12,643 nt of DNA from a virus (IMGVR_UViG_2778261064_000023); one strand, 5' to 3'. Numbered from the stretch's first letter, positions 8,045-11,256 are shown. The notes: a model not told the origin generated them from the sequence alone. Program-made: numbers and translations.

Positions 8045-8118
8045 ACGGGTCCTTCCGGAGGGGGGCCTTACCGCGGGGCGACGGACGCGCGGAAAAAGGC
8101 TAATTTTTACATTTTCAT
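8045..8118 (+). other. cos-like site 1: cosQ-like ACGGGTCCTTCCGG, cosN-like GGGGCGACGGACGCGCGG, then AT-rich cosB-like region
   Basis: Resembles the lambda cosQ-cosN region as recalled (ACGGGTCCTTTCCGG ... GGGCGGCGACCTCGCGG); about 180 bp upstream of the TerS-like gene at 8268, as cos precedes Nu1 in lambda. Confidence 0.5.
8066..8100. repeat. 35-bp perfect inverted repeat, left copy (partner at 11197-11231); imperfect match extends to about 8045-8118 / 11179-11256
   Basis: CCTTACCGCGGGGCGACGGACGCGCGGAAAAAGGC is the exact reverse complement of 11197-11231. Confidence 0.9.
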
Positions 8119-8267
8119 CCGTCATCATCATCTTTCCAACATGTTGAATTAAAATGAAATATATTTTAACTATGTTAATTTGGGGTGTTTTTTGTTCAAC
8201 ATACAGAACACTTTTAACCCACTGAAAGATGAGCGCACGATACGCATTTAAAACTACCGGAGGACGA

Positions 8268-8777
8268 ATGGATCGGGAGCTTAAAAACCTGAAACTTAAT
8301 ATCAATCAACTCGCAGAACTGGCGGGAGTTTGCCGCCAGACAGTAGCGAAAAGGCTAAAGGACATTCAGCCAGCCGGAGGGCATGAAAAATTAAAGCTGT
8401 ACCGACTGACGGATATAATCAGCGCATTCATGAATATACCCGCCCCCGCATCACTCGAAGACATGGATCCACAAAGCCGTAAAGCCTGGTACCAGTCTGA
8501 GCGTGAGCGCCTTAAGTTCGAGCAGGAAACGGCTGAACTTATCCCCGCCGTGGATGTGCGCAGGGAGTTGGTTATTTTTGGGAAAATCTTAAGCGAGGAA
8601 CTGGCAAAACTCCCCGACATTCTGGCGCACGATGCAGGCATCAATCAGAACGCAGTAAACCGCGTCAGGCAGATTATTGATGACCTGTGCAGGCAAATTA
8701 CTACCAGAGTGATACAGGCTAACGACTGGCACGACAGCACGCCGCAGGTAGTGCAGGAGATTCACCAGGGGGAATAA
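8268..8777 (+). CDS. TerS-like wHTH protein (Nu1-type N-terminal DNA-binding domain); candidate PICI packaging-redirection (Rpp-like) protein
   Basis: 169 aa from the ATG at 8268 (GGAGG at a 4-nt spacing); N-terminus LNINQLAELAGVCRQTVAKRLKD...AGGHEKLKLYRLTDIISAF parallels lambda Nu1 as recalled (VNKKQLADIFGASIRTIQNW...RGGGKGNEVLYDSAAVIKWY). Confidence 0.55.
   Translation: MDRELKNLKLNINQLAELAGVCRQTVAKRLKDIQPAGGHEKLKLYRLTDIISAFMNIPAPASLEDMDPQSRKAWYQSERERLKFEQETAELIPAVDVRRELVIFGKILSEELAKLPDILAHDAGINQNAVNRVRQIIDDLCRQITTRVIQANDWHDSTPQVVQEIHQGE
8745..8769 (+). repeat. 25-bp direct repeat CAGGTAGTGCAGGAGATTCACCAGG, copy 1 (3' end of the TerS-like gene)
   Basis: Identical 25-mer at 9121-9145; flanks are similar but imperfect. 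Confidence 0.9.
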
Positions 8778-9069
8778 TTCGCGGTACCGGAAAACATCCA
8801 CCAGCAGGGAACGACAAAAAAATAAAAGCGCACCGCTAAGGATGCGCCTTGATTGAGGTTCAATGAGTAAGACATGCACACACATTGTGTCGCACCTCGT
8901 TCATTCTGGCAATGTATCAGGCTGGTGCGTGCGGTAAGCCTCCAGATTTGCGCAATGGTTCCGCCTGTGATGTTAAGGTTTGTTAAGTTGTTTTGCGCAG
9001 AGATGGGCGGAATAAACATTGATGTAAGCCCCGTAATTACTGGCCTTGCCACGTAAAAACCGCGAACAA

Positions 9070-9084
9070 TGATCAGGTTGATCA
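9070..9084. promoter_or_regulatory. 15-bp perfect palindrome TGATCAGGTTGATCA
   Basis: Read from sequence; lies in the 340-bp segment between the two copies of the 25-bp repeat. Confidence 0.25.
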
Positions 9085-9120
9085 TGCTTAGAAATGCCAG
9101 GGGTATTTGCGCAAAAATGA

Positions 9121-9145
9121 CAGGTAGTGCAGGAGATTCACCAGG
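9121..9145 (+). repeat. 25-bp direct repeat, copy 2; in frame it encodes QVVQEIHQ, so it is a remnant of the 3' end of a TerS-like/Rpp-like gene
   Basis: Identical to 8745-8769; preceded by an in-frame stop, so only the gene tail is present. Confidence 0.85.
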
Positions 9146-9261
9146 TGGAGGATTCGCAACCATTCTCTTTATTTCTCGTCATCACGCTGACCTGTATTCA
9201 GCTGGTTGGTCTGTGGCACATCCCCGGATATTTAATTACACCTTACGGTAGCTATCTCCGG

Positions 9262-9458
9262 CGGGTCCTTCCCGGAACCTTAAGCGCCGGGGGTACGGGT
9301 ACGCGCAATTCTTAACTGTTTATGAAAATTTTTCGGGAAAAGTCAGATCCGTTCTTCTTCTCTGTAACTCATTGTTTAATGGTAAAATCATCAAAAAAAG
9401 AAAGGATCTGACAGTGGTCATTTTGGGCCAAAAATGACGTTATCAGATCCTTTCTCAG
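9262..9458 (+). other. cos-like site 2 with complete lambda-like architecture: cosQ-like, cosN-like, then cosB with three TCAGATCC R-elements (direct, inverted, direct)
   Basis: CGGGTCCTTCCCGG 9262-9275; GGGGGTACGGGTACGCGC 9288-9306; TTTATGAAAATTTTT 9319-9333 (as in lambda); TCAGATCC at 9343-9350, its inverse GGATCTGA at 9404-9411, TCAGATCC at 9443-9450, i.e. about +50, +110, +150 from cosN like lambda R3, R2, R1. Confidence 0.6.
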
Positions 9459-9482
9459 TTTTGTTCAATAATTGCGCGGTTG

Positions 9483-10067
9483 TCACTCACCTTTCTGTTG
9501 CCGTAATTTCTCCGGCACGTTTCCGGTTGTTTCCATCAGGTAGTCTTTCAGAATGCGGGGCAGATTATCGGCAGTTTTGGCGCACGCATTACAGGCCCGT
9601 GCTGTTTCCTTCCTCAGCCCATCGAGCATTGCCGGAGTCATCCCGGGGAACTGCCTTTGCATTGTGAGCGGTAAACTATCCATGATCGAAGAAATCTGAC
9701 TCGCCAGTCCACGAAGCGCATAGAGCACGAACTCAGTATCTGTAACCTCCCCCGTCTCTCTGGCGTTCTTCAGTTCCTGCCCGTCAGCCTGTGCTTTGGT
9801 GAGACGGTAGCGTTCGTACTCTGTTGTGCCTGGCTGTAAATCTGATTCACCAGCAGCACGTAAATCATCAAGCTCCCTGCGGAGTTTTTCGTTTTCGATG
9901 TCCTTCTCCCTTTGTGCATACCATTCGATCACCTGTGCAGAGTCGAAAGTCACTTCCACGCCTTTTCCGCCACCAGATGTATGAGGAAGGCCCAGCGTCT
10001 GCCAGCGTTCAATTGTGCGCGGATCAACGCCGAAAATCTCCGCCAGTCTCTTTTTGTTAACATTCAT
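9483..10067 (-). CDS. terS: Terminase small subunit, lambda Nu1-like
   Basis: 194-aa product [70 protein letters not shown]... is collinear with lambda Nu1 as recalled ([70 protein letters not shown]). Confidence 0.85.
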
Positions 10068-10093
10068 CTATCAAATCCTCATCAAAAACCACC

Positions 10094-10288
10094 TCCGACA
10101 TGAAACGCCAGAAAAACGGGATTTTCCGGTGTTATGGTGTCGTATGTTTATGATAGTTAATTTAAATAAAAACATAATGTTACATGCAAGAAGTACCGAC
10201 ATGCTTTTTCCCTGAAAAATTTTCATAAATAGTGAAAATCTGCGCGTCTGCCGCCCCGTGGTGTTAATGGTTCCGGAAAGGACCCGTG
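10094..10288 (-). other. cos site 3 (minus orientation), immediately upstream of the Nu1-like terS: cosQ, cosN and cosB with two direct CATGTCGG repeats
   Basis: Minus strand reads CACGGGTCCTTTCCGG (plus 10273-10288), then GGGCGGCAGACG (plus 10245-10256), then CGCAGATTTTCACTATTTATGAAAATTTTTC, close to lambda cosQ-cosN-cosB as recalled; CCGACATG at plus 10096-10103 and 10196-10203. Confidence 0.65.
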
Positions 10289-10677
10289 AAAAGTCTCCGC
10301 CCCTGTCCGGCAGTGTAAGAGGTGTTTTTTAGGGAGACCCTTTTCAGCCCATAAAACTGGAAAAATCACGGTTTTTTTAGTCTGCTGGTGGAGTGAGTTT
10401 TTTTAACGATGCCAGTAATGGCGCGGGTTGGGCGTGGTTTTGTCTGATAGGTTTTATCTATCAACTCTGCGCACACCTTCCCAAAAAAAAGTTTTCGATC
10501 CTGCGGCGATGCGAAGAAGGGTTGGTAGGCGGTCCCTGACATCCAGGGCCACAGGGATTTGATCTGCCCCTCCCGTTGATGATAACCGTTATCAATTACT
10601 CCACCAGCCGGCAGGACGGTAACAATACATCGGGCTACCCGTTCCGGTACTGGTTAATCCTGGCTTTCGCAATCAGC

Positions 10678-10715
10678 GTGACGTGATGGTGACATGCCGT
10701 GACACATCGTGACGC
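10678..10715. repeat. Four tandem GTGAC-containing 10-bp units (helically phased); possible protein-binding array
   Basis: GTGACGTGATG GTGACATGCC GTGACACATC GTGACGC read from sequence. Confidence 0.3.
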
Positions 10716-10750
10716 TACCAACAGCACAGGGGAGAACGGCAGAACGCGGG

Positions 10751-10775
10751 TAAAAAAATCCCCGTGATTACGGGG
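10751..10775 (-). terminator. Rho-independent terminator on the minus strand (stem CCCCGT/ACGGGG, loop, then a U-run)
   Basis: Plus strand TAAAAAAATCCCCGTGATTACGGGG; minus strand gives a hairpin followed by a T-rich run; implies a leftward transcript from the ORF-poor region 10776-11190. Confidence 0.5.
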
Positions 10776-11178
10776 CAGAAGGATAATAACCATCAGGAAA
10801 TGTTAGCTACCACAAAGCAAATAACCATGAACAACGATTAAGAGTACGGAGAATAACCGCTCGTTCATGCCGGATAATGCCACCAGGCCAGGAGAATGGC
10901 AATGCACGGACCATAACGCATCGCCACCAGCCTTGTGGGTTATCACGCAGCGGTACCGGGAGTCTGGTATCGTGATGCGGCATGATTCAGTGATAAGCAT
11001 CACCGCTTCCGCTCACATTTGACACTGGCAACTCCATCTGGCAGGTGAAAATCAGATTTATTTATATATTTCAATTGATTGCGAACTGGTCTAATGACAG
11101 GGGAGAAAAAAGATTGTACAGGTGAAAACAGAAATAACTTTTAATTATCAATATATTACTACACATGCTGCCGCCGCC

Positions 11179-11256
11179 ATGAAAATGCAAAAACCAGCCT
11201 TTTTCCGCGCGTCCGTCGCCCCGCGGTAAGGGTACCCATCCAGGAGGACCCGCGAT
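11179..11256 (-). other. cos-like site 4 (minus orientation); inverted partner of site 1
   Basis: Minus strand reads CGCGGGTCCTCCTGG ... CCTTACCGCGGGGCGACGGACGCGCGGAAAAAGGCTGGTTTTTGCATTTTCAT, near-identical to site 1 over about 55 bp. Confidence 0.5.

Follow-up and report, generated by a model that had tools for sequence, protein, structure and literature searches.

The DNA stretch IMGVR_UViG_2778261064_000023, analysed here over its whole length of 12,643 nucleotides (the window), is a phage-inducible chromosomal island (PICI) of the Gram-negative AlpA/DUF927, cos type. Its packaging region (8045-11256) holds four lambda-like cos sites and is read here as two nested cassettes, each with inverted cosQ-cosN arms and inward-facing cosB, that together would form a packaging module of several specificities. 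The probability of this reading is put at about 0.55. The outer cassette is composed of site 1 (cosB1 and a DUF1441-type small terminase gene, terS) and site 4 (cosB4). The inner cassette is composed of site 3 (a phage-21-type cosB3 and a Nu1-type terS) and site 2 (a SerU/Gifsy-1-type cosB2). What was established directly is that all sites and both genes have homologues, how the module is laid out, that this layout recurs in other islands, and that inversion isomers occur.

The 7-mer GGGTCCT, the core of lambda cosQ, is present in exactly four copies in the 12,643 bp, at 8047 and 9263 on the plus strand and at 10279 and 11245 on the minus strand, all of them at cos sites. An nhmmer profile made from only five phage and prophage cos cores (lambda, SerU-LTIIb, PhiR40_1, PhiR5_1 and the CFT073 icd prophage) matched the window at 8045 (+), 9262 (+), 10287 (-) and 11252 (-), with no other match up to E=10. 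The rounded E-values were 2e-20 for site 3, 6e-14 for site 2, 2e-13 for site 1 and 9e-7 for site 4. The four cores are:

8045-8134, plus strand: site 1 core, with cosQ at 8047-8053, a predicted cohesive end at 8076-8087 (GGGCGACGGACG) and an I2-like AT-rich tract (profile E=1.9e-13)
9262-9351, plus strand: site 2 core, with cosQ at 9263-9269, a predicted cohesive end at 9292-9303 (GGTACGGGTACG) and I2 TTTATGAAAATTTTT (profile E=6e-14)
10196-10287, minus strand: site 3 core, with cosQ at 10279-10285, a predicted cohesive end at 10245-10256 (GGGCGGCAGACG) and I2 (profile E=2.2e-20)
11173-11252, minus strand: site 4 core, with cosQ at 11245-11251 and a predicted cohesive end at 11210-11221 (GGGCGACGGACG, the same as in site 1; profile E=9e-7)

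The cohesive-end and nick positions are derived from alignment to lambda, and by this alignment cosQ and the predicted nick are 22-23 nt apart at every site (23 nt in lambda). The cosN flanks are conserved, with (C/G)GG and CGC on either side of a 12-mer of the form GG...ACG, and the central bases of the 12-mer are unlike those of lambda. On these alignments, the four motifs are true lambda-type cos homologues rather than chance matches. Among PICI cos sites in general, the 12 bases that correspond to the lambda cohesive end are very variable, and they might define cohesive-end incompatibility groups. Twelve different non-lambda 12-mers were counted in 18 islands, and only the outer GG...ACG is fixed across all cos cores of the window and of loci L001-L028. 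Three PICIs have the 12-mer GGGCGGCGACCT in common with lambda and with the helper prophage of CFT073.

The initial annotation, made from the sequence alone, had proposed four cos-like sites in this region. The GGGTCCT count and the phage-only profile agree with its coordinates and orientations, and site-by-site alignments to phage 21, SerU-LTIIb and PhiR40_1 bear out that the motifs are related to cos. It had called sites 1 and 4 near-identical inverted partners. This holds for a 53-nt inverted repeat of 94% identity (8066-8118 / 11179-11231), but cosB4 is unrelated to cosB1. The inverted core that it had seen in sites 2 and 3 was recovered as a repeat of 80 nt at 75% identity (9262-9341 / 10207-10286). 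A cosQ-like motif is present at every site in the form GGGTCCT, but the longer CGGGTCCTT(T)CC(C)GG version is missing from site 4. Site 1, given as 8045-8118, was correctly placed and drawn too short, as its core reaches ~8134 and its cosB-like repeats ~8205. Its view that sites 1, 2 and 3 differ in their cosB repeats is upheld, with candidate repeats located at all three. The inverted terS that it placed inside the array is the Nu1-like gene at 9483-10067 on the minus strand, and a second terS-type gene lies at 8268-8777 on the plus strand.

The cosB elements were compared with the order R3-I1-R2-R1. Site 2 has three CAGATCC elements, and site 3 has R3 and R1 (CATGTCGG) together with a weaker R2. 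The repeats of site 1 are of another kind and parallel those of PhiR40_1, and site 4 has no recognisable R set. Judged by these repeats, the sites carry three different cosB types.

The inner cassette contains, in addition to the cores of sites 2 and 3:

9342-9457, plus strand: cosB2, with R3 at 9342-9359, I1-like TAACTCATTGTTTAA, an inverted R2 at 9395-9412 and R1 at 9443-9455, the repeats having a CAGATCC core throughout
9483-10067, minus strand: Nu1/gp1-type small terminase gene of 194 amino acids (Pfam Phage_Nu1, 8e-68, profile positions 1-162 of 164)
10092-10207, minus strand: cosB3, with R1 (CATGTCGG, 10095-10102), R2-like and I1-like elements and R3 (CATGTCGG, 10196-10203), aligned to annotated phage 21 (OL657228)

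Site 3 matches the annotated phage 21 cos element by element (cosN, I2, R3, I1, R2 and R1), and its cos and terS are 74% identical to those of phage 21 / PhiR5_1. It lies immediately upstream of the full-length Nu1/gp1-type terS, whose product has a complete Phage_Nu1 domain with an N-terminal winged helix-turn-helix and aligns with residues 1-98 of lambda TerS in PDB entry 6hn7_B (1.5e-38). The best phage relative of this protein is PhiR5_1 Nu1 (70.7%). Its N-terminal region reads RTIERWQ, the same as in phage 21, and this region holds the DNA-recognition helix in lambda Nu1. The agreement with phage 21 is in line with the CATGTCGG repeats of site 3. The Nu1-like protein matched RppC at no better than E=0.053, within the helix-turn-helix region, and on this similarity it falls outside the Rpp family. 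The island TerS is also a mosaic. Its N-terminal DNA-binding half is phage 21/PhiR5_1-like, and its C-terminal half is like the TerS of the W24 PICI (locus L014, 5771-6313), with which it has a 12-amino-acid C-terminal extension in common; the N-terminal domain of the W24 protein is unrelated.

In site 2, CAGATCC lies at 9344 and 9444 and, inverted, at 9404. The closest likeness of this site is to the cos of the SerU-LTIIb prophage (75% identity over 202 nt), in which all three R elements and the I1-like tract of cosB2 are kept, and there is a weaker likeness to Gifsy-1. The homology with SerU-LTIIb stops ~12 nt past R1, where the phage terS starts and the island instead has the 3' end of the opposing terS. 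Site 2 has no terS of its own.

The outer cassette contains the following further features:

8020-8045, plus strand: GC hairpin followed by seven T residues, terminator-like and abutting the site 1 cosQ (AAGCCGGAACACTCCGGCTTTTTTT), read directly and not listed by the terminator scan
8136-8205, plus strand: cosB1, an inverted repeat, with R-like AACATGTTGAA at 8139-8149, ATGTTAA at 8173-8179 and inverted TTCAACAT at 8195-8202
8268-8777, plus strand: DUF1441-type small terminase gene of 169 amino acids (Pfam DUF1441, 4.7e-35; PHROG 141, 'terminase small subunit', 6.9e-55)
8745-9149: 29-bp direct repeats (8745-8773 and 9121-9149) bounding a 348-bp indel, found by repeat analysis
10288-11172: segment Y, between sites 3 and 4, with three Chi sites and GTGAC repeats at 10677-10716, inverted as a block in strain A36

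The phage counterpart of sites 1 and 4 is the cos of the PhiR40_1/mEp460 type of lambdoid phage, in which a DUF1441 protein serves as the small terminase. The DUF1441 terS of the island follows site 1, whose core aligns with the PhiR40_1 cos. The site 1 repeats ATGTTGAA and TTCAACAT, at 8141 and 8195, are aligned with CATGTCGAA and TTCGACAT in PhiR40_1, with a matched C/T and G/A difference, so that island ATGTTGAA / TTCAACAT and phage ATGTCGAA / TTCGACAT differ by the same change in both repeat arms. The DUF1441 protein aligns over its full length with the PhiR40_1 TerS and differs from it in the C-terminal tail. In PhiR40_1, the TerS gene is directly upstream of the gene for the large terminase subunit (gpA-type, 'terminase DNA packaging protein A'). 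The DUF1441 gene was also considered as an Rpp and rejected, as it gave no RppC match at E up to 1 and no meaningful identity to RppA, and is a full-length phage TerS homologue. The TCCGGCTTTTTTT junction at the hairpin also precedes the plus-strand cos of EcCICFT073. The 29-bp repeat is the 3' end of the DUF1441 gene, and the segment that it bounds holds an unassigned minus-strand open reading frame (ORF) of 133 amino acids (8762-9163). Strain ETEC6335 lacks exactly 8774-9120, which gives its DUF1441 gene a different, longer C-terminus.

Site 4 matches site 1 in cosQ, in cosN and for ~30 nt past them, and then diverges into a cosB4 (GGCGGCGGCAGCATGTG..., with CAGGTGAAAA at 11042 and 11119) of its own. 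Both occurrences of CAGGTGAAAA (11042-11051 and 11119-11128), which read TTTTCACCTG on the minus strand, are downstream of site 4 in its expected cosB position and could be candidate binding sites for a specificity factor. The ORF in segment Y had no Pfam or PHROG match. Four GTGAC motifs with ~10-bp spacing (cgtgacgtgatggtgacatgccgtgacacatcgtgacgct) were read directly at 10677-10716 in this gene-poor segment, and they may be a candidate protein-binding array. In the packaging region as a whole, no Rfam match and no tandem repeats were found, and a promoter and terminator scan of 7900-11500 gave counts near the shuffle expectation.

Which sites are cut, and by which helpers, we infer from these resemblances. 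After induction and replication, a helper phage would provide the large terminase subunit (TerL), capsids and tails, and the island TerS proteins, once on cosB1 or cosB3, would bring in the TerL of a matching helper. cosB2 would be open to direct binding by the TerS of a SerU-type helper. Several terminase lineages could thus initiate packaging on the island. Such multi-helper packaging is plausible, and a broader helper range would fit the three phage lineages that the sites resemble. The initial annotation had likewise suggested that different helpers might use the sites, or that packaging might run in either direction from a concatemer, a reasonable idea of what such an array could do. Lambda-type termination is polar and requires cosQ upstream of cosN. 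An inverted site would therefore be ignored by a motor arriving from its partner, and each site would pair only with its own copies in the concatemer. The opposed orientation would also prevent deletion between direct repeats. Three 13.6-kb copies of the island (~41 kb) would fill a lambda-size head, and multimer packaging has been proposed for EcCICFT073 (PMC6092414). The inverted arms would double as recombination joints at which segments flip and are exchanged between islands. The flips would probably begin with terminase cuts at cosN, processed by host RecBCD, Chi and RecA, and they would reshuffle the combinations of cosN, cosB and terS.

EcCICFT073 has two functional cos sites, of which cos1 is required for transfer and is recognised via an Rpp-TerS heterodimer (PMC6092414, PMC6739421). 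In the CFT073 sequence, cos copies at 25528 (+) and 26340 (-) form an inverted pair flanking rppA (25660-26094). The window resembles EcCICFT073 (Fillol-Salom et al. 2018, 2019) as a Gram-negative AlpA-type PICI with lambda-type cosQ and cosN, a non-lambda cosB, an inverted cos pair around a packaging-specificity gene, and a hairpin and T-run abutting the plus-strand cosQ. It differs in having four sites, as two nested pairs, and in its specificity genes, which are full-length TerS homologues of the DUF1441 and Nu1 types where EcCICFT073 has Rpp; no Rpp homologue was detected in the window. The window also has three different predicted non-lambda 12-mers where EcCICFT073 has GGGCGGCGACCT twice, and it is without homologues of the capsid/decoration genes. 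Some E. coli PICIs have been noted to encode TerS (PMC6092414).

The initial annotation had held that a satellite normally needs one cos and that the present arrangement was undescribed. This is too strong, because EcCICFT073 has been published with cos1 and cos2, and the arrangement is undescribed only in part. No literature on four cos sites or on inversion of cos-bounded cassettes was found, in a search that was incomplete and is no proof of absence. Since an inverted cos pair occurs around both rppA and PICI terS, the four-site array is two such cassettes nested and involves no new principle. Four nested sites, three cosB types and two terS genes are an expansion of the EcCICFT073 two-cos design. 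What is new is that cos-bounded cassettes, as far as the island comparisons below can tell, invert and are exchanged at the cos cores.

EcCICFT073 also bears on a possible interference device, in which the extra sites, especially site 2, would be decoys that titrate helper TerS or terminase or provoke unproductive cuts and so lower the helper yield, with no part in transfer of the island. Deletion of cos2 from EcCICFT073 raised transfer by lambda and phi80, so that cos2 competes with cos1 (PMC6092414), and interference by PICIs at the TerS step, by means of Rpp, is already known (PMC6739421). Site 2, with a full phage-type cosB and no cognate island terS, would suit such a role. However, each island copy would offer only a few DNA sites, which would titrate weakly next to a protein inhibitor, no such phenotype has been attributed to cos2, and the full-length island TerS proteins point to active packaging. 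Interference is considered improbable.

A survey of 5,426 complete E. coli genomes bears on a second alternative, that of recombination debris. Here, the extra sites would be neutral scars of exchange at cos, a recombination hot spot, with helper phages or other PICIs, and a single site would be in use, in all likelihood site 3 or site 1, each with a terS beside it. The site-2-type cosB was found in 749 genomes, the complete inner cassette in 24 and the unit of site 1 and DUF1441 in 19. The rarity of the four-site family (~20-25 genomes) and the 95-99% identity of most of its islands favour debris. The order cos(+), terS, cos(-) is also present in the U90/cq9 family and in two PICIs adjoining phoQ, those of W24 and O157:H7 strain 7409; a Nu1-related terS is there followed by an inverted cos with cosB2 (CAGATCC). 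Over the 3' half of terS and cosB2, these islands have 77-92% identity with the window, and this recurrence of a cosB2-type inverted site beside a PICI terS, together with the 749 genomes that have this cosB type, argues against debris. Each of these islands has one cassette and the window two; the N-terminal DNA-binding domain of the W24 and O157 TerS, and the cosB upstream of it, differ from those of the window.

Within the four-site family, the sites outlast the genes. The terS (window 9545-10050) is deleted in TUM1881, VTB97432v and ETEC6335, which keep sites 2 and 3, and Z1324 lacks 8204-9082, including DUF1441, and keeps site 1. All four sites persist in the islands in which terS is deleted and in those in which DUF1441 is deleted or replaced (Z1324, MB06102, A36 and A19). 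The DUF1441 slot of A36 has a gene for a 261-amino-acid hypothetical protein, and the terS of A36 is frameshifted. One A19 site lacks cosQ. In copies that are 8-12% diverged (A36 and the TUM1881 site 3), GGGTCCT, the cosN flanks, I2 and the R repeats are intact. Loss of terS and DUF1441 in some relatives would suit debris, as would the mosaic arms, in which cosQ, cosN and cosB types are reshuffled between islands, the truncation of site 2 exactly where a phage terS should begin, and the weak core of site 4. Yet independent deletions took the genes and spared all four sites, the motifs are intact in diverged copies, and both cos sites of EcCICFT073 were active in plasmid-transfer assays (PMC6092414). 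Debris is possible, although unlikely. In MB06102 (locus L020, 5337-6128), the place of DUF1441, with an outer cos site on one side and an inner one on the other, is taken by a gene for an F4 (K88-type) fimbrial subunit, and the interior of the outer cassette can therefore hold accessory cargo.

Several points weigh against the reading of the region as a multi-specificity packaging module. Terminase cutting is a prediction at all four sites, and site 4 has the weakest core of the four, no recognisable R repeats and no partner gene. A close helper phage was not found. In the phage collection of 50,697 records, no cos or terS exceeded ~75% nucleotide identity to the window, no TerS was more than 71% identical in amino acids to the product of the Nu1-like gene, and the best phage match of the site 1-DUF1441 region was at ~70% nucleotide identity. 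The members of two neighbouring pairs, sites 1 and 2 and sites 3 and 4, point the same way and are only 1.2 kb apart, so the insulation expected from polar termination would miss some pairs. The effect of the cos2 deletion in EcCICFT073 implies that a second site is not necessarily beneficial. Because most four-site islands are 95-99% identical, the persistence of the sites may partly reflect youth rather than selection. Finally, both genes can be dispensed with, since several relatives have a deletion or frameshift of terS and others have no DUF1441.

The cassettes are found in both orientations. The isomers, listed by the order of their cosB elements with all islands read in island orientation, are:

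Window type (8 islands): B1, B2, B3, B4
A19 and MB06102: B1, B3, B2, B4, with the inner cassette flipped
A36: B4, B2, B3, B1, with inner and outer cassettes flipped, equal to the A19 type plus an outer flip
cq9, HNSQ2209, CEA224S and PapRG: B3, B2
U90: B2, B3

In BLAST maps, the flanks are collinear, the bounded segment is reversed, and the overlaps fall inside the ~100-bp cos cores. Between U90 and cq9, the left backbone agrees at 99.6% and many proteins are identical, but the terS cassette is inverted; the cassette is likewise inverted between U90 and CEA224S, and the joints fall in the cos cores here too. These comparisons imply four or more independent inversions, and the cos cores are, on the maps, the recombination joints. 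The bounding arms of each flipped isomer have overhang-equivalent 12-mers that are the same or 1 nt apart, whereas those of unflipped relatives are heterogeneous. This is the pattern expected from double-strand-break repair at cosN with the inverted arm as template and crossover resolution, as read from a small sample of related islands. The cosQ, cosN and cosB types are also reassorted among islands. A dedicated invertase of the Hin/Gin or shufflon type was considered and rejected, because no such gene adjoins the inverted repeats. Pfam and PHROG searches of the ORFs in 7900-12643 gave no recombinase or invertase domain, and the sole recombinase is the integrase at 1-1239.

A tentative and rather doubtful proposal goes further and treats the inverted cos pairs as a built-in device for PICI diversification. 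Terminase would cut at cosN in one arm, and repair from the inverted partner arm, helped by dense Chi sites in two orientations through RecA loading, would flip the cassette and convert the cosN sequence. Cohesive ends, cosB specificity and terS/rpp genes would be reshuffled rapidly, within and between islands, and two nested cassettes would give four isomers and a portfolio of terminase specificities. If true, this would explain why PICIs retain two opposed cos sites.

The window contains 18 Chi sites (GCTGGTGG), nine per strand, compared with 0.35 expected from shuffles:

Plus strand: 885, 1962, 2039, 4874, 6687, 7513, 10384, 11421 and 11872
Minus strand: 113, 3819, 5467, 6713, 8798, 10601, 10924, 11465 and 11600

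For sites 1, 3 and 4, there are Chi sites in the correct orientation at 240-560 bp from the free end on the cosQ side. Related PICIs that were checked, EcCICFT073 among them (11 sites in 11 kb, again like the window), have 0.56-1.8 Chi sites per kb, and the flanking chromosome has 0-0.5 per kb. The 46-kb lambdoid prophage at icd in CFT073 has none, and its TerS is identical to phage 21 gp1. The icd locus is the site of the EcCICFT073 helper prophage (PMC10111431). Chi richness in the islands and its absence from the CFT073 helper prophage point to a strategy of RecBCD evasion or of recombination, unlike the Gam route of phages. No description of Chi enrichment in PICIs was found in the literature, in an incomplete search.

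The remainder of the window agrees with its assignment as a PICI. Its closest counterpart is in E. coli STEC383 (NZ_CP091026), with only 20 differing positions over the window, and the island there is ~13.6 kb and lies between cspD/yljB and clpS. The defining genes are:

1-1239, plus strand: tyrosine integrase (Pfam Phage_integrase, 1.8e-18; Arm-DNA-bind_3, 1.7e-16), 100% identical to that of STEC383
1658-1867, plus strand: AlpA regulator, a PICI hallmark (Pfam Phage_AlpA, 1.7e-16)
3920-6064, plus strand: DUF927 replication protein, RefSeq 'DUF927 domain-containing protein' (Pfam DUF927, 5e-47)

Pfam searches of the window ORFs identified the integrase, AlpA, DUF927 and SSB. The DUF927 gene occupies the slot of the PICI pri-rep gene and is followed by candidate replication-origin iterons (GGGACAAC) at 6175-6376; further genes encode Ash, DUF4222, SSB, a ProQ/FinO-like protein and PerC. 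No virion or lysis gene, and none of the genes of capsid-forming PICIs (terL, portal, capsid, head completion), was present among the scanned ORFs or the RefSeq features of near-identical islands. The element thus has what is expected of a PICI: an integrase-alpA-replication module in one direction, a size in the 10-15 kb range, no virion or lysis genes found, and an attachment (att) site. The packaging region holds the position used by EcCICFT073 for its cos sites and rpp. Rfam searches matched only isrK (80 bits, 2732-2808, plus strand) and C4 antisense RNA (75 bits, 2830-2917, plus strand), just upstream of and inside the Ash/Icd region, a pair that resembles the C4-icd immunity module of the P1/P7/P4 type. 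The integration module has been swapped independently of the replication and packaging backbone, with at least four integrase/att modules among the islands compared (window 1-2030 against loci L001, L005 and L013).

This gene content also bears on whether the locus is a composite of two satellites, or of a satellite and a prophage remnant, fused head to head with accidental symmetry. Two PerC-family regulator genes (7650-7937, just upstream of site 1, and 12272-12643, beyond site 4) and two terS genes might suggest such a fusion. The second PerC gene, however, is on the same strand as the first and not mirrored, there is a single integrase, AlpA and replication module, and the inner terS has no flanking virion genes. 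The whole unit moves intact among four att sites with different integrases (cspD-clpS, tRNA-Pro/yejM, rcnR-thiM and yifB). The strains concerned are unrelated, an indirect sign that the island may be induced and transferred by helper phages. A composite locus is very improbable and was rejected on the single gene set, the intact movement and the missing virion genes.

Other known systems share parts of this design. Lambdoid phages (lambda, 21, phi80, PhiR5_1, PhiR40_1/mEp460, SerU-LTIIb and Gifsy-1) have the same order of cosQ, 22-23 nt, cosN, I2, R3, I1, R2, R1 and terS, but they have a single cos followed by terS-terL and head genes, whereas the window has four opposed cos sites and no terL. 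Hin/Gin/Cin, shufflons, the 2-micron plasmid and herpesviruses likewise have segments that are bounded by inverted repeats and occur in both orientations, and nesting of such segments gives several isomers. Unlike in those systems, the repeats of the window are packaging sites and no dedicated recombinase was found in or beside the segments; its inversions may be rare homologous or break-induced recombination. The Staphylococcus aureus pathogenicity islands (SaPIs) likewise have a TerS of their own, which acts with its own pac site and turns the TerL of the helper towards the satellite; SaPIbov5 has a cos, and two putative cos sites have been noted in SaPIbov4 (cited in PMC6092414). The SaPIs are Gram-positive and unrelated in sequence, and no nested or inverted arrangement was found described for them.

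The 2019 Rpp paper asked why some PICIs carry two different cos sites, and this locus and its relatives provide a frame for that question. An inverted cos pair bounds a specificity gene and can be duplicated and nested, its arms may differ in cosB and in cohesive end, and the segments in between are found flipped in natural islands. Should the sites serve different terminases, lambdoid helpers of several lineages would be open to a single island of 13.6 kb, which would mean a wider spread of PICI cargo in Shiga toxin-producing, enterotoxigenic and other E. coli. If terminase cuts drive the flips, a cos site would act in satellites as an engine of recombination as well as a signal for packaging.

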